Positions 22,600 through 54,576 of a stretch of 64,000 nt of DNA are shown here, piece by piece. How positions within the stretch are numbered: the first letter of the stretch is position 1; the number at the start of each line of letters is the position of its first letter. Both the position numbers and the translations under genes were made by a program. This DNA comes from Escherichia phage vB_EcoM_E9.1, in the sequence record PP886230, one strand, 5' to 3'. The notes beneath the pieces were generated by a model. The model had not been told where the DNA came from, searched no databases, and worked only from the letters and a program-made list of their open reading frames with translations.

Positions 22600-22791
22600 A
22601 TGTTGATTTATCAAAGTGATAATATTCGTGTTATGCAGCATCCCTACTTACAAATCTTTGATGTGCAGCAGTATATGGAAGGTGATGACCCAAGAACCTA
22701 TGGTCGTAAGTATGATTACTTCACTGTAAAGCAGTGTAAAAATATTAACGAAGTACGACAATTAGTTCAAGAACTTCAAAACAAAGGTTGA
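22600..22791 (+). CDS. hypothetical protein
   Basis: ORF ~63 aa; ATG 22600 after AAGGA; TGA stop lies inside the TTGACT of the downstream module. Confidence 0.5.
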   Translation: MLIYQSDNIRVMQHPYLQIFDVQQYMEGDDPRTYGRKYDYFTVKQCKNINEVRQLVQELQNKG

Positions 22792-22817
22792 CTTCGGTCA
22801 GCCTTTTTTGTTATAAT
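22785..22817 (+). promoter_or_regulatory. fused terminator-promoter module
   Basis: Hairpin AGGTTGAC-TTCG-GTCAGCCT plus T6; TTGACT in the 5-prime stem arm serves as -35, 18-nt spacer, TATAAT. Confidence 0.65.
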
Positions 22818-28605: not shown

Positions 28606-28614
28606 TAATAAAAG

Positions 28615-28646
28615 GGTTGACTTCGGTCAGCCTTTTTTGTTATGAT
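28615..28646 (+). promoter_or_regulatory. fused terminator-promoter module
   Basis: Hairpin GGTTGAC-TTCG-GTCAGCC plus T6, TTGACT -35, 18-nt spacer, TATGAT. Confidence 0.65.
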
Positions 28647-32807: not shown

Positions 32808-32900
32808 ATGGATTAAACAATGAAGAAGTGTATGATTCTTTGTTCTAATCACCATCGCATGGTACATTCTGGTAGACTATGTTTGATTGAAAGAAAAAAA

Positions 32901-32933
32901 GGGTTGACTTCAGTCGGCCCTTTTTGCTATAAT
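32901..32933 (+). promoter_or_regulatory. fused terminator-promoter module
   Basis: Hairpin GGGTTGAC-TTCA-GTCGGCCC (two G-U pairs) plus T5, TTGACT -35, 18-nt spacer, TATAAT; conserved leader CATTTCATCGAAACGAGAGG before the ATG. Confidence 0.65.
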
Positions 32934-32961: not shown

Positions 32962-33477
32962 ATGACACGCATTAACTTAGTACACGTTAAAGAACTTGCT
33001 GACCAACATCTGATGGCTGAATATCGTGAACTCCCACGTGTATTTGGTGCTGTACAAAAACACGTTCAAGCACGTAAGCGTGTACGTGATTTCAAAATTA
33101 ACAGTACTTATCTGTTAGGTTCAGGTCATGTAACATTTTTCTACGACAAGTTACTGTACTTACAGAAGCGTCATATTGATATTGTCAACGAATGTCTGCG
33201 TCGTGGTATGAAGATTCAAAACACTGAAGTAAACGACATTAGCGGCTTCCCTGCTGAGTTTTGTAATGACTATGTACCATCGGAGTCAGAGATTAAAATG
33301 TCTCGTGATCGTTTGATTGAGAAGCTCCAGATGAAGCCTACGTGGTATAAGTTTACTGATGTTGAATGTCCACAGTACGTTAAAGATATGCAGAACGTAA
33401 GTAGTAAGAACGAATCTAGTACTGATATGTTCGACGAAATTGAAGAACAAATCAAAGATGAAATGAATAATTATTAA
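32962..33477 (+). CDS. denV: pyrimidine-dimer DNA glycosylase / AP lyase (T4 endonuclease V family)
   Basis: ORF 171 aa; N-terminal ~135 aa nearly collinear with T4 endonuclease V as recalled ([50 protein letters not shown]); carries a ~35-aa acidic C-terminal extension. Confidence 0.85.
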
Positions 33478-33515
33478 AGGAAAGGATTGACTTCGGTTAC
33501 ACAAAGGAACATAAC

Positions 33516-33710
33516 ATGTTATTAGTATATTCAAAGCGTTTCTGGATTTCTTTTATTGTACTATCGCTAATCGGCTTCGGTTTGAGTATACTCTTTTCGT
33601 GGGATGAATTGGGTACATGGTATTATGAAGTACCGTGGTACATGAAGATAGCTCCTTGTTATGCGGCATTGTTCGTGTCATTCCTTATTGTTGTCTTCAG
33701 CGAGGATTAG
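33516..33710 (+). CDS. small membrane protein
   Basis: ORF 64 aa; two hydrophobic helices. Confidence 0.5.
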   Translation: MLLVYSKRFWISFIVLSLIGFGLSILFSWDELGTWYYEVPWYMKIAPCYAALFVSFLIVVFSED

Positions 33711-33761
33711 TTGATGTAGTATGTGCTACACCAAAGTATTTGGATATTTGAGATATAAACA

Positions 33762-34176: not shown

Positions 34177-34182
34177 CATAAA

Positions 34183-34215
34183 GGGTTGACTTCGGTCAGC
34201 CCTTTTTGCTATAAT
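34183..34215 (+). promoter_or_regulatory. fused terminator-promoter module
   Basis: Hairpin GGGTTGAC-TTCG-GTCAGCCC plus T5, TTGACT -35, 18-nt spacer, TATAAT; same conserved leader ATCGAAACGAGAGG as at 32940. Confidence 0.7.
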
Positions 34216-34241: not shown

Positions 34242-34481
34242 ATGAAACTATCTTTTATACGTTTAGCAGAATTCTTCGGTACTGATATTATTACTTTACA
34301 ACAAATTGCAGACAATACTTCATTAAGTACACAAGAAGTACTTGACTTAGATGTAATTCAGTGCGATAATACTTCCATTGATTTCAAAGAAGGTCTTGTC
34401 GAAAAAGATAAGATTCAAGCTAAGATTAATGGTGCTGGACGGGTTCAGTACTGGAAAGGAGTTTTAAGTAATGCCAGCTAA
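34242..34481 (+). CDS. hypothetical protein
   Basis: ORF 79 aa. Confidence 0.55.
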   Translation: MKLSFIRLAEFFGTDIITLQQIADNTSLSTQEVLDLDVIQCDNTSIDFKEGLVEKDKIQAKINGAGRVQYWKGVLSNAS

Positions 34482-35820
34482 ATTAACCCCTAAACAAGCA
34501 AAAGAAAAATTCAACAATAAAGTATTAGAACATAACGTTCCAATTGAAGCTGATTATAGTAAGTATGAAAATGCCAAATTAAAAAACATCCAAGTAGTTT
34601 GCAATGATGTATTAAAACACAAATCAGGCATATCACAAGTATATCTTATGGATCACGCAAACCTCACACACCCATCTAAAAAATTTGGTTGTCCTGAATG
34701 TGAAGACTGGTATAATGGTCATGCTAAAAGTTTAGATATTTTAATTGTTAGGGAAAGAATTAATTCTTGGATTAGTACTTATGGTGGCATAATTGATACA
34801 GTTAGTGGTGAAGTTGAAGTTTATAAAAATAATTCAACAAAAATACCATATATTTGTAAAAATGGAACTAAAAAAACGCTTACTATTTCTACACTGGGTG
34901 ATGAAATCGGTTGTAATTGTTCTAAATGTAAATCTGAATTAATATCAGAAATCGAAGATAACAATGAATATACATCCATGACTACTGATGATGATTGTGT
35001 TACAATTTCCCATTTTATATTTGGGGATGATGTTGCATTCTCGTGGATTTCACCATTGGAAATGAAAAAACATGGTTACGGTCTTGCCGAAAAAATGAAA
35101 GAAAAAGCATTGTCGGTTGGTAAAAATATTATTGGATATGCAATATCATCTCTTAGTGAATGGAAAAATGAAAAAACTCCTGTAATAACGGAACACGAAG
35201 GAGTATTATATCGTATTTCCAGAGCATCATATTTGATCAATAATAATATAGTACATAGACCACATTATACAAAAAATAATTTTTTATATTATTTTTACAA
35301 ATGTTCACCTAACAATCAACTTATTACACCAATCCTAATACCTGATGATGTTGGTACAAAAAAGAAAATTAAAGTATGTTATAAATCATGTGGGTGTGAA
35401 TACGATATATCTGTGGACGTTATAATGAACAGAAATTTAAAAACTTGTGGAAACTGTAAAAATATAGATACTAAAACATTTATAGAAAAGTGCTTGGAGT
35501 TCAAATCAAGTGGAGAATATATCTATAATAGAGTAAACTATATAAATCAAAGTACACCTGTAACTATAGTTCATAAAATTTACGGAGAATTCAAAAGTAC
35601 ACCACAAAATCACTTAACACATTTAAAAAACAGTTTGAAATATGATACAGCTAACTTTAAAATAAAAAATCTAACTCAATTTAAAATTAAAGCAAATGAA
35701 GTTCATAATAACTTATATAATTATGATAAAGTTGATTATGTAAATTCTTCAACGAATTTAAAATTAAAGCAAATGAAGTTCATAATAACTTATATAATTA
35801 TGATAAAGTTGATTATGTAA
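34471..35820 (+). CDS. cysteine-rich repeat protein, C-terminus disrupted by a 77-bp tandem duplication
   Basis: ORF 449 aa with CxxC pairs (CPECEDW, CNCSKCK, CGNCKN) and repeated ~40-aa units (Y..V.Y.N..T...I.H..YG.F...P..HL); the last 21 codons are read out of frame through the second DNA repeat copy. Confidence 0.5.
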   Translation: MPAKLTPKQAKEKFNNKVLEHNVPIEADYSKYENAKLKNIQVVCNDVLKHKSGISQVYLMDHANLTHPSKKFGCPECEDWYNGHAKSLDILIVRERINSWISTYGGIIDTVSGEVEVYKNNSTKIPYICKNGTKKTLTISTLGDEIGCNCSKCKSELISEIEDNNEYTSMTTDDDCVTISHFIFGDDVAFSWISPLEMKKHGYGLAEKMKEKALSVGKNIIGYAISSLSEWKNEKTPVITEHEGVLYRISRASYLINNNIVHRPHYTKNNFLYYFYKCSPNNQLITPILIPDDVGTKKKIKVCYKSCGCEYDISVDVIMNRNLKTCGNCKNIDTKTFIEKCLEFKSSGEYIYNRVNYINQSTPVTIVHKIYGEFKSTPQNHLTHLKNSLKYDTANFKIKNLTQFKIKANEVHNNLYNYDKVDYVNSSTNLKLKQMKFIITYIIMIKLIM

Positions 35821-36068
35821 ATTCTTCAACGAAAGTATTAATAACTCATCCAGTGTATGGAGACTTTTGGCAAACTCCAAATGGGCATTTGGCAGGTAAA
35901 GGACACCCGAAAGTCAAAGGTGGTGTTCCTTATACATGTGATGAATTTAAAATTAAAGCAAATGAAGTTCATAATAACTTATATAATTATGATAAAGTTG
36001 ATTATGTAAATTCTTCAACGAAAGTATTAATAACTCATCCAGTGTATGGAGACTTTTGGCAAACTCCA
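35680..36068 (+). repeat. tandem DNA duplication inside the repeat-protein locus
   Basis: 77-bp unit TTTAAAATTAAAGCAAATGAAGTTCATAATAACTTATATAATTATGATAAAGTTGATTATGTAAATTCTTCAACGAA at 35680-35756, repeated and extended at 35757-35879 and again at 35946-36068; copies identical by eye. Confidence 0.8.
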
Positions 36069-36434
36069 GCAAGTCACCTTTGTGGGTCTGGTCATCCACT
36101 TGCGGCTGGTCATTCTCAGCAATATGCATATATTCATAATATTTTGGATGGTGATTTATCTGTAGCATTGAAATATGGTATTGAAAAGCAGAAAGGTAAG
36201 AGGGTTATGCAGCAAAATAAAAAATCATTATTTAAAATTGAATCGTTACATACGTATTTTTTCACATCTGTGTTTGAGTGTAAGGAAGCTGAAAAAGAAT
36301 GTAAAAAACTATTTGGTAAAGGCGTTTTAACTAAACAAGAAATGCCAGATGGTTATACTGAAACTACTACACCAAACAACATAGATAAAATTATTGCAAT
36401 CTATGAAAAATGGGGTGGGGTGAAAAAAAACTAA
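35853..36434 (+). CDS. repeat protein (continuation or second copy of the 34471 locus)
   Basis: ORF 193 aa containing two copies of FKIKANEVHNNLYNYDKVDYVNSSTKVLITHPVYGDFWQTP.HL.G.GHP. Confidence 0.5.
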   Translation: MYGDFWQTPNGHLAGKGHPKVKGGVPYTCDEFKIKANEVHNNLYNYDKVDYVNSSTKVLITHPVYGDFWQTPASHLCGSGHPLAAGHSQQYAYIHNILDGDLSVALKYGIEKQKGKRVMQQNKKSLFKIESLHTYFFTSVFECKEAEKECKKLFGKGVLTKQEMPDGYTETTTPNNIDKIIAIYEKWGGVKKN

Positions 36435-36440
36435 ACAAAA

Positions 36441-36473
36441 GGGTTGACTTCGGTCAGCCCTTTTTGCTATAAT
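36441..36473 (+). promoter_or_regulatory. fused terminator-promoter module
   Basis: Hairpin GGGTTGAC-TTCG-GTCAGCCC plus T5, TTGACT -35, 18-nt spacer, TATAAT. Confidence 0.7.
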
Positions 36474-36501
36474 TATTTCATCAACTGATGAGGATAACGA
36501 A

Positions 36502-37272
36502 ATGACCAGAGAAGCACGTAGCATTCAAATCCAGAAAAACTTCAACTCCATGATGGTTGCTCTTGAGTGTTTGCTCGACGATAGCAGTACTGTAAAAAGT
36601 ATGGTTGTCAGTGGTGCTCCTGGTGTTGGTAAGACTTACACCCTGTCTAAACGCCTCCAGAAAGCTCATGACGCAGCAGAATGGAACGTAGCTACCATCA
36701 GTGGTAAAATGACTACTCTGGCTCTGTACGAAGTTCTGTACAAGAATCGTCACAGCACTAACGTATTAGTACTGGATGATATGGACAGCATCTTTGATTC
36801 AGAAGACGGTATGAACCTGCTCAAAGCAGTACTGGACAGTGGTAAACGTACTGTGTCTTACATGACTAGCTCTAAGTACTTAACCACTAACGGTATCCCT
36901 AACAGCTTTGATTTTAACGGTCGTATCGTATTCATCACTAACAAAGATTTAGCATTAGATGCTAAAGCTAAAACGAAAATGTCTGCTCACTATGCTGCTC
37001 TTATGTCTCGTTCTGTATACGTTGACTTACAGATTCAGACCAAAAGCGATATCATGATTCACATTGAGAACGTGATGAATCAGACTAACATTTTAGAATC
37101 TAAGGGTATTAACCGTAATGGTAGTAAAGCAATTCTGAACTGGATGTTGAAGCACGAAGATTCTCTTCGTTCACCTTCACTGCGTATGCCACTGTTGATT
37201 TCGGCAGTATATAACAACAACCCATACGATTGGGAAGAGCAGTGCGAAAACTTGTTCCTTGAGAAAATTTAA
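36502..37272 (+). CDS. P-loop NTPase (Walker A/B)
   Basis: ORF 256 aa; Walker A GAPGVGKT near residue 38, Walker-B-like VLVLDD near residue 90. Confidence 0.6.
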   Translation: MTREARSIQIQKNFNSMMVALECLLDDSSTVKSMVVSGAPGVGKTYTLSKRLQKAHDAAEWNVATISGKMTTLALYEVLYKNRHSTNVLVLDDMDSIFDSEDGMNLLKAVLDSGKRTVSYMTSSKYLTTNGIPNSFDFNGRIVFITNKDLALDAKAKTKMSAHYAALMSRSVYVDLQIQTKSDIMIHIENVMNQTNILESKGINRNGSKAILNWMLKHEDSLRSPSLRMPLLISAVYNNNPYDWEEQCENLFLEKI

Positions 37273-48616: not shown

Positions 48617-49756
48617 TTATTTCCACGGTAGAAGTGAATCAGGAACCCTTGTTGGTACAGTAGTTGAAGACATTCCAGTAAGATTGGGTACACCACATGT
48701 GTATAAATTATTATATTCGTCAACTAACATCGTATAAGAATAGCTCTTACAAAAACTACTAAGATTACTACCTTCTAATGCAGTAAGATCCATTTCAGCG
48801 AATGATGTTATATACATATCAGTTGTACCAATACCACATTGACCATTTGAATTAAGGCCACATGAAAATAACTTATTATTATTATTAATTATACAGGATG
48901 GTCCGGTAAGGTTTGTCCCAAGCTCACCCACCAACTCCACTTCTCCTTGGAATGATAAATTTGGAATTAATGTACTCATTGGGGCTACTGACCTATTTCC
49001 TGTACCTGCTTGTCCATAGTCGTTAATAGATGCAACTTTAACATTACCATCATTAAGAAATATATAAGAAGTTTCATTTGTATTGACTGCTTTAATTGCA
49101 TTACTAATCGAAGTATCTTGTGTAAATGTGAGCAAGTTTTGTGTCGTCGTTCCTGATACAAACGTTCTACCTGCATACCAATATGAACCATCATTTAGTA
49201 CTAATCCAGTACTATATATTGCACAACCAGCACTGATAACATTTTCTATTGTACTATAGGTGAATCGTGAAACGCTTGAAGTTGATCCATTCCCAAAAAC
49301 ACCACCAGTACCAGCACCACAGTAGAACCACTTTCCATTTTTTAAAAATACACGCATACACGAAGATATCACAACACTATCAATATCATCTGCACTGACA
49401 CCGAAATCAGTAAAGTTCTGTGTTATATCAACCCAAACGCCGTTAGTGTTTGAAGATAGTATTGGAATAACAGTACGTCTACCAGTGTACCAAATAGTAC
49501 CATCTTTCTTTATAGCAATTGTTCCTTGTACCCCACCCCAATATCGTGTAACATTTGAGTTGACAAGAGTCCATTCAGTTGAAGAGTCCAATGAACCATT
49601 ACCACTTTGTCCATATGCTGAAGAACCAAACCAATATAGATTGCCATTTGTGTGTAAATAAAATTTGGCATCAGCAGAACATTGTAACCTGTTTTTAGGT
49701 AGAATCAGTTCAGGTGCGATATTCCCGTACTTAACCATTCTTGCAAAAGGTAACAT
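48617..49756 (-). CDS. RCC1-like repeat protein, array member 5
   Basis: ~380 aa from MLPFARMVKYGNIAP (track start 49918 runs through the control element); motifs YGQSGNGS, NGQCGIGT, YGQAGTGN. Confidence 0.8.
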   Translation of the reverse strand: MLPFARMVKYGNIAPELILPKNRLQCSADAKFYLHTNGNLYWFGSSAYGQSGNGSLDSSTEWTLVNSNVTRYWGGVQGTIAIKKDGTIWYTGRRTVIPILSSNTNGVWVDITQNFTDFGVSADDIDSVVISSCMRVFLKNGKWFYCGAGTGGVFGNGSTSSVSRFTYSTIENVISAGCAIYSTGLVLNDGSYWYAGRTFVSGTTTQNLLTFTQDTSISNAIKAVNTNETSYIFLNDGNVKVASINDYGQAGTGNRSVAPMSTLIPNLSFQGEVELVGELGTNLTGPSCIINNNNKLFSCGLNSNGQCGIGTTDMYITSFAEMDLTALEGSNLSSFCKSYSYTMLVDEYNNLYTCGVPNLTGMSSTTVPTRVPDSLLPWK

Positions 49757-49826
49757 ATTCCCTCCTTTATTTGTTATACTATATTTAATACAAATAAGAA
49801 AGCCAGTACAGTGTACTGGCATTATG
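49757..49826 (-). promoter_or_regulatory. array control element
   Basis: Near-identical copy. Confidence 0.6.
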
Positions 49827-50936
49827 TTATTTTGGTAAATCAATTTTAGTAAAGACTGCAACATCCTCGATTGCACCTGGAATGGCGTAATACGATCCAG
49901 TACTATACACATCTCCATTTTTGGTTAATATCGATGTCAAACCATCACTAAAAAGAACATCCCTAATCTCACTAACTTCAACGGGTAATTGTAAATTGGT
50001 AGCACTATATATAGCACCAGTTTGAGAATTGTTTAATCCCAAACCACGGTTCGCCCCAACACCCTTCTGATATGTACTAGTAATTACCATTTGTGTAGCA
50101 GTATTTAAGGCAGGTGAATTCGTCATAAACAATGGAGAACTATTAGGCAAAGTACTTACAGGAACTGCACGGAATGTAGTCGTACCTGAACTAAGAAAGT
50201 TTGGAGTTTGACCACATACGAAATATGATGTACCATTATAGTAATTTAATGCATTACCACCAATGGCTGCATCGATTACACCAGAACTACGCAATCCCCA
50301 AGTGTTAATTTGTGTTTGGTTCCCCGTACCATGCTGCCCACTACTATTCCATCCAGAACTATATAGCTTATTATCTAATGTAAGATACATACTATCATTC
50401 GCATTGGTCATTACTTTACGAACGTTCGTAGCACATTGAGTTAATGTGTAAATTGATGAGGAACCAATACCCAAAGAACCACGATATCCATTATCTCCTG
50501 CACCATAGAGTACTGAATTAGTGCTAAGTACAAATATTAAACCATTTGTACATACAATATTAGCAATTTCACTTACTGGTATAGCATTGGTAAACCAATT
50601 AGTTCTTTCAACTAATACAGTACTGTAAGAAGTAGTTGTAGAAGATGAGAACCAGTACGTTTGACCTGATGTCCATATCGTATTATCATTTTTAATAATA
50701 ACAAGTGTACGATCACCCACGAAAAAATTAGAAACATCTGCACTTACTAATGTCCACGAAGACACCGTGTTGGTATTACCATTTCCAGATTCACCACCTT
50801 GATTTCTACCTATGTAATATAAATCATGTGAATCAGTCAATAAGAATTGGCCTTGGGTAGAAGCACCAACTTTAATTATTTTTTTAGGACCAGGGACAAT
50901 ATTTCCATACCTAATCATTCTTCCAAAAGGTAACAT
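49827..50936 (-). CDS. RCC1-like repeat protein, array member 4
   Basis: ~370 aa from MLPFGRMIRYGNIVP; motifs GGESGNGN, SGQHGTGN; start 8 nt after upstream stop, with AGGAGG inside the end of the upstream gene. Confidence 0.75.
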   Translation of the reverse strand: MLPFGRMIRYGNIVPGPKKIIKVGASTQGQFLLTDSHDLYYIGRNQGGESGNGNTNTVSSWTLVSADVSNFFVGDRTLVIIKNDNTIWTSGQTYWFSSSTTTSYSTVLVERTNWFTNAIPVSEIANIVCTNGLIFVLSTNSVLYGAGDNGYRGSLGIGSSSIYTLTQCATNVRKVMTNANDSMYLTLDNKLYSSGWNSSGQHGTGNQTQINTWGLRSSGVIDAAIGGNALNYYNGTSYFVCGQTPNFLSSGTTTFRAVPVSTLPNSSPLFMTNSPALNTATQMVITSTYQKGVGANRGLGLNNSQTGAIYSATNLQLPVEVSEIRDVLFSDGLTSILTKNGDVYSTGSYYAIPGAIEDVAVFTKIDLPK

Positions 50937-50944
50937 ATTCCCTC

Positions 50945-52147
50945 CTATTGTTGCCATAACTGCGTTGGCATTAATGTTAGTGTAGTAATACTATAAGTGC
51001 CATCTGGCAATCTACCACCATTTCCATTCCAGCCACCACATGCATATAATTTATAATCTTTAGTAATTATTATGGTTCTGCTCCAATCTTTAGATGCCAT
51101 AAGAACATTGTCATAACCACCACTTATTGCACTAAGATTAAAAATATTCCAAGTTCTAACTAATGTATTAGTTCCATTACCTTCTTGACCATATGAGTTA
51201 GCACCACTACTTCTAACATATGGTGCGTATTGTGCCATAGGTGCACCAATTGATGCATTTCCCATATTACTTGGACAAATAAAAGTACTGTACTTACTTA
51301 CATCAACCGTGACCGATGTGTTCCTAATTGGTGTTAGCTGATTTACCGATGTAGTCGTACCATTACCAGCTTGTCCAGAACTGTTAGCCCCGCTATAATA
51401 TACAGACCCACCAGTAGTAAACCACCAAGTAACATCGTATGTAGTACTAATATGTTCTACATTACTAATCACGAATTTGTTCAAATATACAACAGAACTA
51501 CCACCACATCCACTTTCACCAAAGTTATCCTTACCACAAAACCATGCATCTTTATTTGATTTGATATAGTGCGTTCCTTGTAATGAACATGCCATATGTG
51601 TAACTTCACCCATATTAGTCATAACTGTGAGTGTAGGGATGGAATTTTTATTCCCAGAGCCACATTCACCATTAGTATTTCTTCCACACGCAATTACTCT
51701 ACCATCGGTTAATAATATTCTAGTACTTTCACCTATATATACACTCTTGATCATATTAGCCATAACACCTATTTTATTAAATGCAACAGTAACATCAGTC
51801 CATGTTGTCAAATAACCATTAACAGGTGTTGCATCTCCATAATCAGAAAATGCACCCACAGACCCAGTGTAGTATATTTTATTATCCAAATCAATCATCA
51901 ATGAACCTTGAACACCAAGCCAAAAGGCTGCACAGTTCCTTGCAAGTACTGTAAATGACGAAACTGCTGCTGAATTCCCAAGACCAAATTGATAAAAGTT
52001 ATTACTACCATAACCATATAAAGTATTAGTTGGGTTATGGAGATACATACAGTTTGTATAATGTTGTTGTAAAACATCTGAGAACTCTACAGGTTCTGGA
52101 CCTGGTGCAATATTTGCGTACTTAACCATTCTTCCAAAAGGTAACAT
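50945..52147 (-). CDS. RCC1-like repeat protein, array member 3
   Basis: 400 aa; leader MLPFGRMVKYANIAP; motifs FYQFGLGNS, NGECGSGN, SGQAGNGT, YGQEGNGT. Confidence 0.8.
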   Translation of the reverse strand: MLPFGRMVKYANIAPGPEPVEFSDVLQQHYTNCMYLHNPTNTLYGYGSNNFYQFGLGNSAAVSSFTVLARNCAAFWLGVQGSLMIDLDNKIYYTGSVGAFSDYGDATPVNGYLTTWTDVTVAFNKIGVMANMIKSVYIGESTRILLTDGRVIACGRNTNGECGSGNKNSIPTLTVMTNMGEVTHMACSLQGTHYIKSNKDAWFCGKDNFGESGCGGSSVVYLNKFVISNVEHISTTYDVTWWFTTGGSVYYSGANSSGQAGNGTTTSVNQLTPIRNTSVTVDVSKYSTFICPSNMGNASIGAPMAQYAPYVRSSGANSYGQEGNGTNTLVRTWNIFNLSAISGGYDNVLMASKDWSRTIIITKDYKLYACGGWNGNGGRLPDGTYSITTLTLMPTQLWQQ

Positions 52148-52218
52148 ATTTCCCTCCTTTATTCATTATACTATATTTAATACAAAAAGAAATGCCAGTA
52201 TCAAGTACTGGCATAATA
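52148..52218 (-). promoter_or_regulatory. array control element
   Basis: Near-identical copy. Confidence 0.6.
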
Positions 52219-53397
52219 TTATCGGTTAAATTTAAAATCTGTTATGTGTGTCCATGTATGATTTAATGGGGTACTCATTGGTGTAAAGCCAGCAGGGTCT
52301 GACAAAGCTGTACCACGTGCGTACATAAATTGATTGCCAGTACAATCCATTATAGCATAAGAACGTGTTGCTGTGCCACATTTGAACCCAACTGCACTAC
52401 TTGGGGTCGGTAATACTTCAAATGTAGGTGCATTTGAACTACCACCCCCATCTTTTGTTCCAGCTATGTACAGAACTCCATTAGTATCAATGATTAAGTT
52501 AGTCCAATATGCTTGTTCTCGACCAGCATAAAAATATGTTAAATCACCGGGTACAAATGGTAACGTTCCTTTATATATTGTAGTATTAACATTCACTGGT
52601 GCACCAGCTACACCCCATGAACTCATATAGTTTCTCCCACTTGAGTAGAATGTAGTTCCTTTACCGTAAAGTATTAATGTTGCTTGACTTGTTCGCATTG
52701 CATTATATTCAAACTCAGGATCATCAGTAGCGTCCTTAAAAATCTGTGTCCATGTTGTTATATTACCAGTAGTCGTAACACCCATTTGATAATAATAATT
52801 ATCACCAGTAGCATAGAATTCTTTAGGGCCAGTTTGTACAATTGCATTCCCATTAGTTAACCAAAAATCTAATGTATTAGTCTTGATCTTGGTTGGTGTG
52901 TAATTCGCCACGGTATTTCCTTTTCCGAAATAACCATTAGCGTTATTTCCATGACCCCATAAATCACCATTAGTTGTGCGTAGGAATAATGTACCAGTAT
53001 TGAATCCAACTTTTTCTATAGTACTTATGTCAATACCAACAGTCGTGTACTTCGTTGTAAAATCTTGAAAAGTACTCCAATAATTAGATGAACCATTAAA
53101 CATGGTTTGTCTACCAGTGTACTTCACTTTATTATCGTTAGTGATAAGTAATGTCCCCCACACTGACGCGAACATTAACTTAACATTTTCCATAACAAAG
53201 TATGGCTTACCGTATGCTGACGCGGTAGTGTTTAAACCTAATAGTTGTCCATCATTACTACAACCCCATACTTCGCCGTTATCCAAAAGCATCAACATAG
53301 TAGGTTTGCCGGATGATACATCCAAAAAGAAATCTTTTGGTGTTGGTACGCCCGGTGCTTCATTTCCATAATTCAACATTCTTCCAAAAGGTAACAT
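52219..53397 (-). CDS. RCC1-like (divergent) repeat protein, array member 2
   Basis: 392 aa; leader MLPFGRMLNYGNEAP; weaker repeat motifs (ANGYFGKGN). Confidence 0.7.
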   Translation of the reverse strand: MLPFGRMLNYGNEAPGVPTPKDFFLDVSSGKPTMLMLLDNGEVWGCSNDGQLLGLNTTASAYGKPYFVMENVKLMFASVWGTLLITNDNKVKYTGRQTMFNGSSNYWSTFQDFTTKYTTVGIDISTIEKVGFNTGTLFLRTTNGDLWGHGNNANGYFGKGNTVANYTPTKIKTNTLDFWLTNGNAIVQTGPKEFYATGDNYYYQMGVTTTGNITTWTQIFKDATDDPEFEYNAMRTSQATLILYGKGTTFYSSGRNYMSSWGVAGAPVNVNTTIYKGTLPFVPGDLTYFYAGREQAYWTNLIIDTNGVLYIAGTKDGGGSSNAPTFEVLPTPSSAVGFKCGTATRSYAIMDCTGNQFMYARGTALSDPAGFTPMSTPLNHTWTHITDFKFNR

Positions 53398-53466
53398 AGT
53401 TCCTCCTTTATCATTATACTATATTTAATACAAATAAGAAAGCCAGTATCAAGTACTGGCATCGTA
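53398..53466 (-). promoter_or_regulatory. array control element
   Basis: Near-identical copy. Confidence 0.6.
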
Positions 53467-54576
53467 TTACTTGGGTAATGGAATTGTGGTCCATCTATTT
53501 GCGGCAACGTCACCTGGTACATATGTAGGACTACCACTTACAGCAATAGTTTCATTACCATCATATACAACACTGAAGTTTGTGCACGTATACAACGCTG
53601 CGGCATCTGGATTGTAATTTTCAAGTGTTAGTGTATTGGTGAACAAATTCAATGCAGTAGTTGAGCCGTTTTTACCATATGCACCTGTAGTATATATCTT
53701 TCCTTCTGTTGTTGAGTACATATTAACATATGACCCAGATGATGATTTAGCAATTTTATCTATCTTGCTATCTATTGTTTTAGAGTTAAATTGAAATGGA
53801 TATACCTGTACGTTAGTATCTAAACCATTTCCCAGTTCCCCATTTAACTGCCACCCTGTGTGGTACATTCCCGCATTTGTATATGCAAGCGTACTATACG
53901 CATTACCACCCATTATTTTAGTGCCAGATAATTTTAAACCAAACGATGTCCACTTACCAGTTTCATTTCCTATGGAACCATAAGCACTTGTACCACACGC
54001 ACGAAGCTCGCCATTTGACGTTAGAAGCACTGTATTATTAACGTTACCAAATATATCAATAACCTGATTAGTGCCATTATTCAGTACTGAAGTAAAAGTA
54101 CTCTGTGAGTAAGTACTACCTGAACCAACAGAACCATTTGTGTTCATACCTCTTCCATATACAATTTTACCATCAGCACTAACATAGTGCATTGAATCAA
54201 AACCAATGGATATCATTTTAATATCAGATATATCTGGAAATGAAGAAGTTACATCTACTCCACCTAGTGGAATTGTATTATTTCCTAAACCTAATGAGAC
54301 ATTAGTTCCGTGCATTATAAATTTATCTTCTTTAAAATATAAAATATTATATCCACCAGCCCATGCATTATTAACGCCATTTGTAATCAGTACCCATTTA
54401 TTTTGTGTAGTAGTTCCAGTAATATTTAACTGTTGATAGTTATTGATTCCACAACCATATAGCGATCCATCACCATATAGTACATATAAATTATCATATC
54501 CTGCAATAACTTTCTTTATTTTTTTGGGTACAGGTGCTACATTCCCATACTTTAACATTCTTCCAAAAGGTAACAT
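53467..54576 (-). CDS. RCC1-like repeat protein, array member 1
   Basis: 369 aa; leader MLPFGRMLKYGNVAP; motifs NGSVGSGS, NGELGNGL. Confidence 0.75.
   Translation of the reverse strand: MLPFGRMLKYGNVAPVPKKIKKVIAGYDNLYVLYGDGSLYGCGINNYQQLNITGTTTQNKWVLITNGVNNAWAGGYNILYFKEDKFIMHGTNVSLGLGNNTIPLGGVDVTSSFPDISDIKMISIGFDSMHYVSADGKIVYGRGMNTNGSVGSGSTYSQSTFTSVLNNGTNQVIDIFGNVNNTVLLTSNGELRACGTSAYGSIGNETGKWTSFGLKLSGTKIMGGNAYSTLAYTNAGMYHTGWQLNGELGNGLDTNVQVYPFQFNSKTIDSKIDKIAKSSSGSYVNMYSTTEGKIYTTGAYGKNGSTTALNLFTNTLTLENYNPDAAALYTCTNFSVVYDGNETIAVSGSPTYVPGDVAANRWTTIPLPK

Follow-up and report, generated by a model that had tools for sequence, protein, structure and literature searches.

The gene and its insertion site

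The region described lies on the forward strand of a window of 64,000 nucleotides (the whole stretch of DNA that was analyzed), and all positions and features given below refer to that strand. An endonuclease gene occupies a fixed intergenic site between a gene of 79 amino acids and an AAA-ATPase gene. The conserved upstream 79-amino acid gene (phrog_34150, positions 34242-34481) carries at its 3' end an AAGGAG ribosome-binding site and overlaps the endonuclease ATG in the sequence TAATG. A near-consensus sigma-70-like promoter (TTGACT-18-TATAAT with TG, 11 of 12 matches) is located at 34186-34215 and likely starts the transcription unit of the 79-amino acid gene and the endonuclease gene. The promoter is placed inside a repeated hairpin/promoter cassette, of which there are five copies in the window compared with zero expected by chance. 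Directly 3' of the gene, at 36439-36473, the cassette (GGGTTGAC-TTCG-GTCAGCCC, then TATAAT) forms the right-hand boundary of the insertion site. In Salmonella phage SD-2_S15 this site is empty, with the junction reading ...GGAAAGGAGTTTTAAGTAAAAAAAGGGTTGACTTCGG..., and in PBECO4, BAU.Micro_ELP-22, and vB_Ec-M-J other endonuclease genes are found at the same junctions. The gene is thus optional at a fixed position, with both empty and alternatively occupied alleles among relatives, and it is much less diverged than its upstream flank. The best matches to the window as a whole are BAU.Micro_ELP-22 (97.4% identical) and slurp01 (98.6%).

Judged from its sequence, the gene is a free-standing homing-endonuclease-like gene of an Asteriusvirus (PBECO4/121Q-like) jumbo coliphage, and it matches phrog_681 "endonuclease" at 7.8e-57. 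From the N to the C terminus, the protein consists of a CxxC-rich region, three DNA-binding repeats of the DUF723/CapR type, and a GIY-YIG nuclease domain resembling T5orf172; its homologues contain DUF723, DUF4379, and CapR domains. The nuclease domain (36090-36431) has the GIY-YIG alpha/beta fold and retains all residues that are invariant in the family (Tyr-14, Lys-28, Gly-30, Arg-38, Gln-42, Cys-64, Glu-68, Asp-87, Gly-88, Glu-91, and Gly-109), among which the Tyr of GIY, an Arg, and a metal-binding Glu may have catalytic roles; the protein presumably cuts DNA and homes. The family was assigned via PHROGs, homologues, and structure. Searches of Pfam and NCBIfam with the two open reading frames and the intact protein returned only noise, the DUF723-type units were not found by Pfam directly, and the nuclease domain of the window gave no match to Pfam T5orf172 or MUG113 at E<=0.1. 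Among homologous domains 41-58% identical to it, T5orf172 (PF10544) is matched by 18 of 40 (best 9.1e-06) and MUG113 (PF13455) by 17 of 40. A profile of the domain against PDB sequences gave nothing meaningful (TUP1, E 0.1), and comparing the domain alignment with one T5orf172-positive sequence by hhalign gave no usable signal (probability 0.1%).

Split reading frames and repeat structure

As written in the record, the gene appears as two open reading frames. ORF1 (34471-35820) encodes 449 amino acids, of which the first 428 are native, covering the CxxC-rich N-terminal region, the first DUF723-like unit, and half of the second, and the last 21 are out of frame. ORF2 (35853-36434) encodes 193 amino acids from a GTG start and is the 3' part of the same gene, containing the remainder of the second DUF723 unit, all of the third, and the nuclease domain. 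Both the out-of-frame end of ORF1 after 21 codons and the restart at 35853 reported in the preliminary description are present in the sequence. Independent translation of ORF2 is unlikely, as its GTG is not preceded by a Shine-Dalgarno sequence and is located 33 nt past the ORF1 stop.

The break is formed by a tandem array at 35678-35833, for which Tandem Repeats Finder gives a period of 77, 2.0 copies, 100% matches, and a score of 312. A script comparison confirmed that the two 77-mers are identical, as had been noted for 35680-35756 and 35757-35833; the phase of the array is ambiguous by 2 nt due to an AA at the boundary, and those coordinates are an equivalent phase. In the phase used here, copy 1 (AATTT...CAACG, 35678-35754) is equivalent to nt 1208-1284 in the intact gene, the 77 bases with which repeat unit A opens, and copy 2 (35755-35831) is the extra copy that breaks the frame (77 = 3x25+2). 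Since 77 cannot be divided by 3, a single gene appears as two open reading frames. The duplicated junction as written consists of CTAACTC and the 77-mer followed by AATTTAAAATT, whereas the single-copy junction has the 77-mer followed by AAAGTATT. No other perfect tandem duplication with a period of at least 20 occurs in the 64-kb window, and a perfect duplication of 77 bp is far beyond chance.

Deletion of one copy gives an open reading frame of 1887 bp encoding 628 amino acids, which differs by 1 nt from the intact coding sequence of Escherichia phages vB_Eco_slurp01 and phAPEC6. The preliminary description had looked to long reads of the phage population for a different repeat number that restores one continuous frame; such a repeat number is found in these closest relatives, each with a continuous 1887-bp open reading frame. 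The 45-mer spanning the duplication junction is absent from the viral and metagenome contig collections searched, and an exact-sequence look-up found neither the 449- nor the 193-amino acid product on record.

A longer repeat lies within the gene itself. The segment at 35754-35879 is identical to that at 35943-36068 over 126 nt at a spacing of 189 nt (63 codons), so that the longer copy described earlier at 35946-36068 is real. In relatives without the duplication the intragenic repeat is 125 bp, with unit A at nt 1208-1332 and unit B at nt 1397-1521 of the intact gene. In the window, unit A is placed at 35755-35879 and encodes FKIKANEVHNNLYNYDKVDYVNSSTKVLITHPVYGDFWQTP, and unit B, the same over 125 bp, is placed 189 bp downstream at 35944-36068; the tail specific to unit A (35880-35942) starts with AATGGGCATTTGGCAGGTAAAGG. 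No other exact repeat in the 64-kb window reaches 77 bp (the second longest measures 64 bp), and the 77-bp unit begins at the first base of this 125-bp repeat (nt 1208 of the intact gene). Phage A4 has an allele without exactly one 189-bp unit, in frame. The suggestion of repeat expansion or contraction thus gains some comparative support on the side of contraction, and the shorter A4 allele could alternatively be a repeat collapsed in a short-read assembly.

At the protein level the units are indeed repeated, with a period of 63 amino acids, of which ~42 are identical, in place of the ~40 first proposed. A custom HMM of the unit, made from the homologues, detects three DUF723-like units (i-E 2.8e-13, 6.4e-26, and 3.7e-25); the first (2.8e-13) is a degenerate copy at 35479-35631 (amino acids 337-387 of the intact protein). 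Their zinc ligands are replaced, and the duplicated units are cysteine-free variants of the zinc-finger repeat, with ITHPVYG...GHP compared with the consensus IICPEHG...GCPKC. CxxC pairs occur solely in the N-terminal third of the protein.

Origin of the duplication

The 77-bp tandem duplication is probably an assembly artefact rather than a biological feature, and of the three readings offered previously (active repeat change, a decaying gene, or an artefact of assembly) this is the one the evidence favors. The duplicated length matches one of the k values used by assemblers (55, 77, 99, or 127), and the two copies do not differ from each other; with 150-nt reads, SPAdes goes up to k=77 by default. 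When the k=77 graph was simulated after deletion of one copy, 77-mers that branch appeared at just four positions of the window, 35678, 35726, 35867, and 35915. The untrimmed joining of a contig ending with the first branching 77-mer to a contig starting with the same 77-mer reproduces all 64,000 bases exactly. Contigs also end at or beside the 125-bp repeat in three independent short-read draft assemblies that carry the gene: in GCA_029945195.1 contigs of 323,817 and 28,750 bp overlap by 73 bp inside the repeat, in GCA_029942545.1 the contig break falls in the middle of the repeat, and in GCA_025271275.1 a contig starts 2 nt past unit B. The artefact is also supported by the absence of the junction from the collections searched, by the single nucleotide that separates the single-copy gene from the intact alleles, and by the retained nuclease residues.

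In the proposed sequence of events, the true gene would have the 125-bp exact internal repeat with units A and B 189 bp apart, and in a k=77 de Bruijn graph contig boundaries would fall at the opening 77-mer of the repeat, which the ends on both sides would carry. Joining these ends without trimming the shared k-mer would write the 77-mer twice, copy 2 being an untrimmed k=77 contig overlap. The source assembly is in this case presumed to have used a SPAdes-type k=77 and an untrimmed join. Identical 77-bp ends that need trimming are documented for SPAdes contigs of circularly permuted phage genomes (PMC9409062). The duplication resembles such terminal k-mer overlaps (identical 55-, 77-, or 127-bp ends on circular or circularly permuted genomes) in its length of 77, its perfect identity, its position at a branching k=77 k-mer, and the reproduction of the sequence by an untrimmed join. 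It differs in that the copies are adjacent and internal and not at the two ends of the record, suggesting that before submission a circular contig had been closed and then re-oriented, or two contigs pasted together.

A real, recent, and strain-private 77-bp duplication, formed by replication slippage or illegitimate recombination and inactivating a selfish homing-endonuclease gene, is unlikely. It would represent the first step in the usual decay of such genes after fixation, and the phage would make a 449-amino acid DNA-binding fragment without the nuclease domain. A real duplication requires two coincidences: the length must be 77 to the base, and the left breakpoint must fall on the very base at which the sole repeat longer than 77 bp in 64 kb begins. 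Length aside, a random breakpoint would lie within 2 nt of that base in ~1/400-600 cases in the gene alone. The AA at the boundary could have provided 2 nt of microhomology for slippage, and the remaining gene is undamaged (1 nt different and the invariant residues kept), which fits a very recent event. The junction, however, is found in no second record of the collections searched. The phage of the window is an isolate in its own right (97-99% identity to the nearest records, and a different best overall relative), and a private mutation in it is possible. A genuine disruption would not be surprising because homing-endonuclease genes of the T5orf172 repeat family are often frameshifted, truncated, or duplicated in real phage isolates, with frameshifts, stops at variable positions, in-frame deletions, and duplications reported as sources of its instability (PMC10448857), and the repeat region varies among the present relatives, with A4 lacking one unit. 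Recombination between units A and B would, however, shift the length by 189 bp and not by 77, and unequal crossing-over between them is rejected as the origin of the duplication.

Highly improbable is a reversible switch in which a real tandem 77-mer converts the homing endonuclease into a nuclease-less DNA-binding protein comparable with CapR-type repressors, which evolved from the DNA-binding repeats of such nucleases. Loss of a copy by recombination or rare -1 slippage on T_TTA_AAA would then restore the nuclease, and the phage population would carry both states. In phages proficient in recombination, a perfect tandem duplication is by nature unstable, a point in favor of such a switch; two copies of a 77-nt unit are nevertheless unlike known contingency repeats. 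Bacterial contingency loci, where phase variation occurs in simple sequence repeats, likewise shift a reading frame by a change of copy number, but they consist of tracts of 1-10-nt units in surface or restriction-modification genes, whereas here a 77-nt unit occurs twice in a selfish nuclease gene and is not conserved. The earlier suggestion of phase variation is accordingly not supported, with only two copies of a long unit present and the split form found in none of the relatives or public collections searched.

As a functional device turning the nuclease on and off, whether by such gain and loss of copies or by a leaky frameshift, the arrangement is scarcely credible. In the leaky version, the T_TTA_AAA heptamer at 35757-35763, which lies in the ORF1 frame such that a -1 slip would lead into the ORF2 frame (open from there to 36434), would give a full-length protein of 654 amino acids beside the truncated DNA-binding form. 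The heptamer is phased solely through the duplication, being read TTT AAA in all relatives, and its phasing is regarded as coincidental. There is no stimulatory RNA structure downstream of it (minimum free energy -16.7 kcal/mol, z -0.49), the split form is conserved in no relative, and the ORF2 start without a Shine-Dalgarno sequence also argues against a functional arrangement. Programmed -1 frameshifting is rejected on the missing structure, the lack of conservation, and the occurrence of the arrangement in one record only.

Relationship to known endonuclease genes and significance

In organization, the gene is closest to the T5orf172-family homing-endonuclease genes (GIY-YIG superfamily) with repeated CapR, DUF723, or DUF4379 zinc-finger DNA-binding domains, which Barth et al. 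(2023, PMC10448857) described in ICP1 and further phages. Shared with them are a C-terminal nuclease of the GIY-YIG fold, whose homologues match T5orf172/MUG113, tandem DUF723-type repeats N-terminal to the nuclease, and a free-standing arrangement with presence/absence polymorphism at a fixed site. Intragenic nucleotide repeats and an in-frame deletion of a unit in a relative are also shared (189 bp in A4 and 228 bp in ICP1 gp174, PMC10448857). Unlike members of that class, the nuclease domain in the window falls below every Pfam threshold, its DUF723 units have lost the zinc-binding cysteines, and the lineage is an Asteriusvirus jumbo coliphage. The classical GIY-YIG homing endonucleases, the T4 Seg proteins and I-TevI, are similarly encoded by free-standing intergenic genes between conserved phage genes. 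In contrast with these, the nuclease domain is here C-terminal and not N-terminal, the DNA-binding part is formed by DUF723/CapR repeats in place of NUMOD or helix-turn-helix modules, and there is no sequence-level match to solved structures.

The main value of the analysis is in quality control. If the duplication is an artefact, the record contains a false frameshift, and automatic annotation gives two hypothetical proteins or a pseudogene for one intact endonuclease gene. The combination of an exact tandem duplication, a length equal to an assembler k, and a position at the edge of a longer exact repeat offers an inexpensive and widely applicable way of finding assembler overlaps left untrimmed in phage genomes that have been deposited. 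The gene itself is a further example of the known T5orf172/DUF723 repeat class and is not new in kind. Its site is an insertion hot spot among the Asteriusvirus jumbo phages, with an empty form and four or more different occupants, and is useful for studies of genome mosaicism.

Tandem duplication and reading frames

Within the region 34300-36600, which was read directly, Tandem Repeats Finder gives a single strong array at 35678-35833 with a period of 77, 2.0 copies, 100% matches, no indels and a score of 312, and direct comparison shows the two 77-mers to be identical. The direct duplication placed by the preliminary description at 35680-35756 and 35757-35833 is the same array with its phase 2 nt off the 35678 start, both phases being valid because AA comes right after the array. 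The longer recurring copy described there is also found, with 35754-35879 matching 35943-36068 exactly over 126 nt at a spacing of 189 nt (63 codons). The two reading frames are as had been claimed, with ORF1 (34471-35820, 449 aa) ending out of frame, its final 21 residues being off-frame, and ORF2 (35853-36434, 193 aa) opening with a GTG start codon. An exhaustive scan of the 64-kb window turned up no second perfect tandem duplication of period 20 or more. The 77-bp duplication and the split gene are confirmed as real in the sequence, and chance is impossible as their source.

Removal of one 77-bp copy gives one ORF of 1887 bp (628 aa). Megablast against GenBank phages assigns the window to Asteriusvirus, the PBECO4/121Q-like jumbo coliphages, and the same 1887-bp CDS is located at the same position in Escherichia phages vB_Eco_slurp01 and vB_EcoM_phAPEC6, 1 nt apart from the corrected gene (window 35527, Asn versus Asp). 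The intact gene contains an exact repeat of 125 bp, with unit A at nt 1208-1332 and unit B at nt 1397-1521. No other exact repeat in the window reaches 77 bp (the runner-up is 64 bp), and the duplicated 77-mer begins exactly where this 125-bp repeat does, at nt 1208. Alleles of 565 aa, each exactly one 189-bp unit short, occur in phage A4 (1698 bp, L002 3292-4989) and as protein P0001 from a Logan contig; this in-frame loss may reflect true recombination between the 125-bp repeats or short-read repeat collapse.

Origin of the duplication

The most probable source of the frameshift is a k=77 overlap between contigs, left untrimmed at the internal repeat. With 150-nt reads, SPAdes by default goes up to k=77, and the agreement of the duplication length with this value was counted towards a non-biological origin. 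Identical 77-bp stretches at the two contig ends, which have to be trimmed off, are documented for SPAdes assemblies of phages with circularly permuted genomes (PMC9409062). For a simulation one 77-bp copy was taken out of the window, whose graph was then constructed at k=77. Branching 77-mers in the simulated window are confined to positions 35678 and 35726, the first and last of unit A, plus 35867 and 35915, the first and last of unit B; at k=127 no vertex branches. When a contig ending in the first of these 77-mers is joined, untrimmed, to one that starts with it, the 64,000 bases of the record come out exactly, so that under the assembly model both length and position follow from k alone. 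Contigs from the de Bruijn graph at k=77 would end and start on the shared first 77-mer of unit A, and joining them without trimming would write this 77-mer twice, causing one gene to be read as two ORFs.

The cluster of the intact 628-aa protein includes contig-end partial proteins from three short-read draft assemblies labelled "E. coli". In GCA_029945195.1 two contigs overlap by 73 bp within the repeat, the 323,817-bp one running up to gene nt 1495 and the 28,750-bp one beginning at nt 1423; if this pair were pasted end to end, a similar tandem duplication of 73 bp, likewise frameshifting, would result. Two contigs of GCA_029942545.1 are broken mid-repeat, and a contig of GCA_025271275.1 begins 2 nt past unit B. 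The junction 45-mer of the duplication was not found in viral and metagenome contig collections, and neither the 449-aa nor the 193-aa split product is recorded among ~15 billion proteins. As a separate observation, an Asteriusvirus with this gene is present in all three drafts, which are deposited as Escherichia coli, and the two GCA_029945195.1 contigs total about one phage genome, an indication that the sequenced cultures were contaminated with phage or in a carrier state.

A genuine duplication arisen by slippage is unlikely. Decay is known for T5orf172-family genes (PMC10448857) and AA provides a 2-nt microhomology, but chance would have to bring both length and breakpoint into line with the values set by the assembler, and length changes through recombination between units A and B would come in 189-bp steps. 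A functional switch and a leaky frameshift are both highly improbable. The second copy does read AAT TTA AAA in the ORF1 frame, which puts T_TTA_AAA (35757-35763) in the right phase to slip by -1 into the frame of ORF2, which is open, but no RNA structure follows this motif (z -0.49), it is out of phase in all relatives, and the arrangement is found in this record alone.

Domain organization of the intact protein

The intact protein matches phrog_681 "endonuclease" (7.8e-57), and a search of 5.8 billion proteins gives as homologues multi-repeat DUF723 (PF05265)/DUF4379 (PF14311) proteins with varied C-terminal nuclease domains fused. A unit HMM made from the homologues locates three DUF723-type units at aa 337-387, 404-456 and 467-519, in which other residues stand in place of the usual zinc ligands (ITHPVYG...GHP versus the consensus IICPEHG...GCPKC); the 77 duplicated bp code for the opening 25 residues of unit 2. 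The last 114 residues (window 36090-36431) make up a widespread domain, invariably C-terminal, with 539 representative clusters. The window's own copy is undetected by Pfam, and among 40 homologous domains 18 match T5orf172 and 17 match MUG113. The residues invariant in the 40-sequence alignment (Y14, K28, G30, R38, Q42, C64, E68, D87, G88, E91 and G109) are all kept in the window, and AlphaFold2, run on this alignment, models the domain with confidence (pLDDT 93.5). Full-length relatives with this domain carry CapR-homology repeats (43/53), DUF723 (19/53) or DUF4379 (18/53).

DUF723-type repeats joined to a C-terminal nuclease domain are the architecture described for T5orf172-family homing-endonuclease genes; these are reported to be unstable, through in-frame deletions, frameshifts and stops that vary, and to recombine between their internal repeats (PMC10448857). 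Judged from sequence, the underlying gene is an intact, ordinary free-standing homing-endonuclease gene of the T5orf172/DUF723-repeat class, with predicted cleavage and homing activity.

Insertion site and probable gene exchange

Elsewhere in the window, tRNA genes Met-CAT (174-252), Asn-GTT (257-330) and Thr-TGT (1998-2071) lie on the plus strand at its start and are probably part of the phage's tRNA cluster. About 10 head-to-tail paralogous genes of 251-433 aa occupy 42865-54576 on the minus strand, sharing 50-64-bp exact repeats at ~1.2 kb spacing; the annotation of the matching region in phage BAU.Micro_ELP-22 reads "regulator of chromosome condensation" (x8). A stretch of ~390 bp at 33366-33756, another small indel or cassette adjoining the denV-like glycosylase region, contains a 64-aa hydrophobic ORF (33516-33710) and is without counterpart at this position in slurp01, PBECO4 and SD-2_S15.

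The endonuclease gene starts in a TAATG overlap with a conserved 79-aa upstream gene, whose 3' end supplies the AAGGAG that the endonuclease gene uses, and ends just ahead of an intergenic cassette. Five plus-strand copies of this cassette (22783-22817, 28612-28646, 32899-32933, 34181-34215 and 36439-36473) differ by at most 3 mismatches, with 0 expected by chance. Each is a GC-rich hairpin, GGGTTGAC-TTCG-GTCAGCCC, with a TTGACT -35 box in the stem and loop and TG-TATAAT 18 nt after it (11/12 promoter matches), and looks like a combined terminator/promoter module between small gene cassettes.

The left (TAA/TAATG) and right (hairpin) junctions are common to window 34471-36434 and all compared alleles. 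In Salmonella phage SD-2_S15 the flanks abut (...AGTAA/AAAAAGGGTTGACTTCGG..., L004 ~2672) and the site is empty. The same junctions surround another DUF4379 and T5orf172-like gene in PBECO4 (gp306, 30% identity over 252 aa, L005 2672-3811) and endonuclease genes with a C terminus that is PD-(D/E)xK/Vsr-like by motif only in BAU.Micro_ELP-22 (L011 1098-2522) and vB_Ec-M-J (L012 1092-2207). BAU.Micro_ELP-22 is the window's best overall relative and has another gene at this site. Compared with slurp01/phAPEC6, the gene with ~50 bp upstream and ~30 bp downstream (34419-36466) shows 1 difference, whereas the 320 bp directly upstream show 16 and the downstream flank diverges by ~1%. This pattern fits recent lateral exchange with putative short co-conversion tracts, and a near-identical gene in diverged flanks, at a site filled differently in the best overall relative, is what marks a mobile homing-endonuclease gene exchanged not long ago, here with presumed cleavage and homing. 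On these comparisons the intergenic position is a hot spot for endonuclease-gene insertion in Asteriusvirus genomes.
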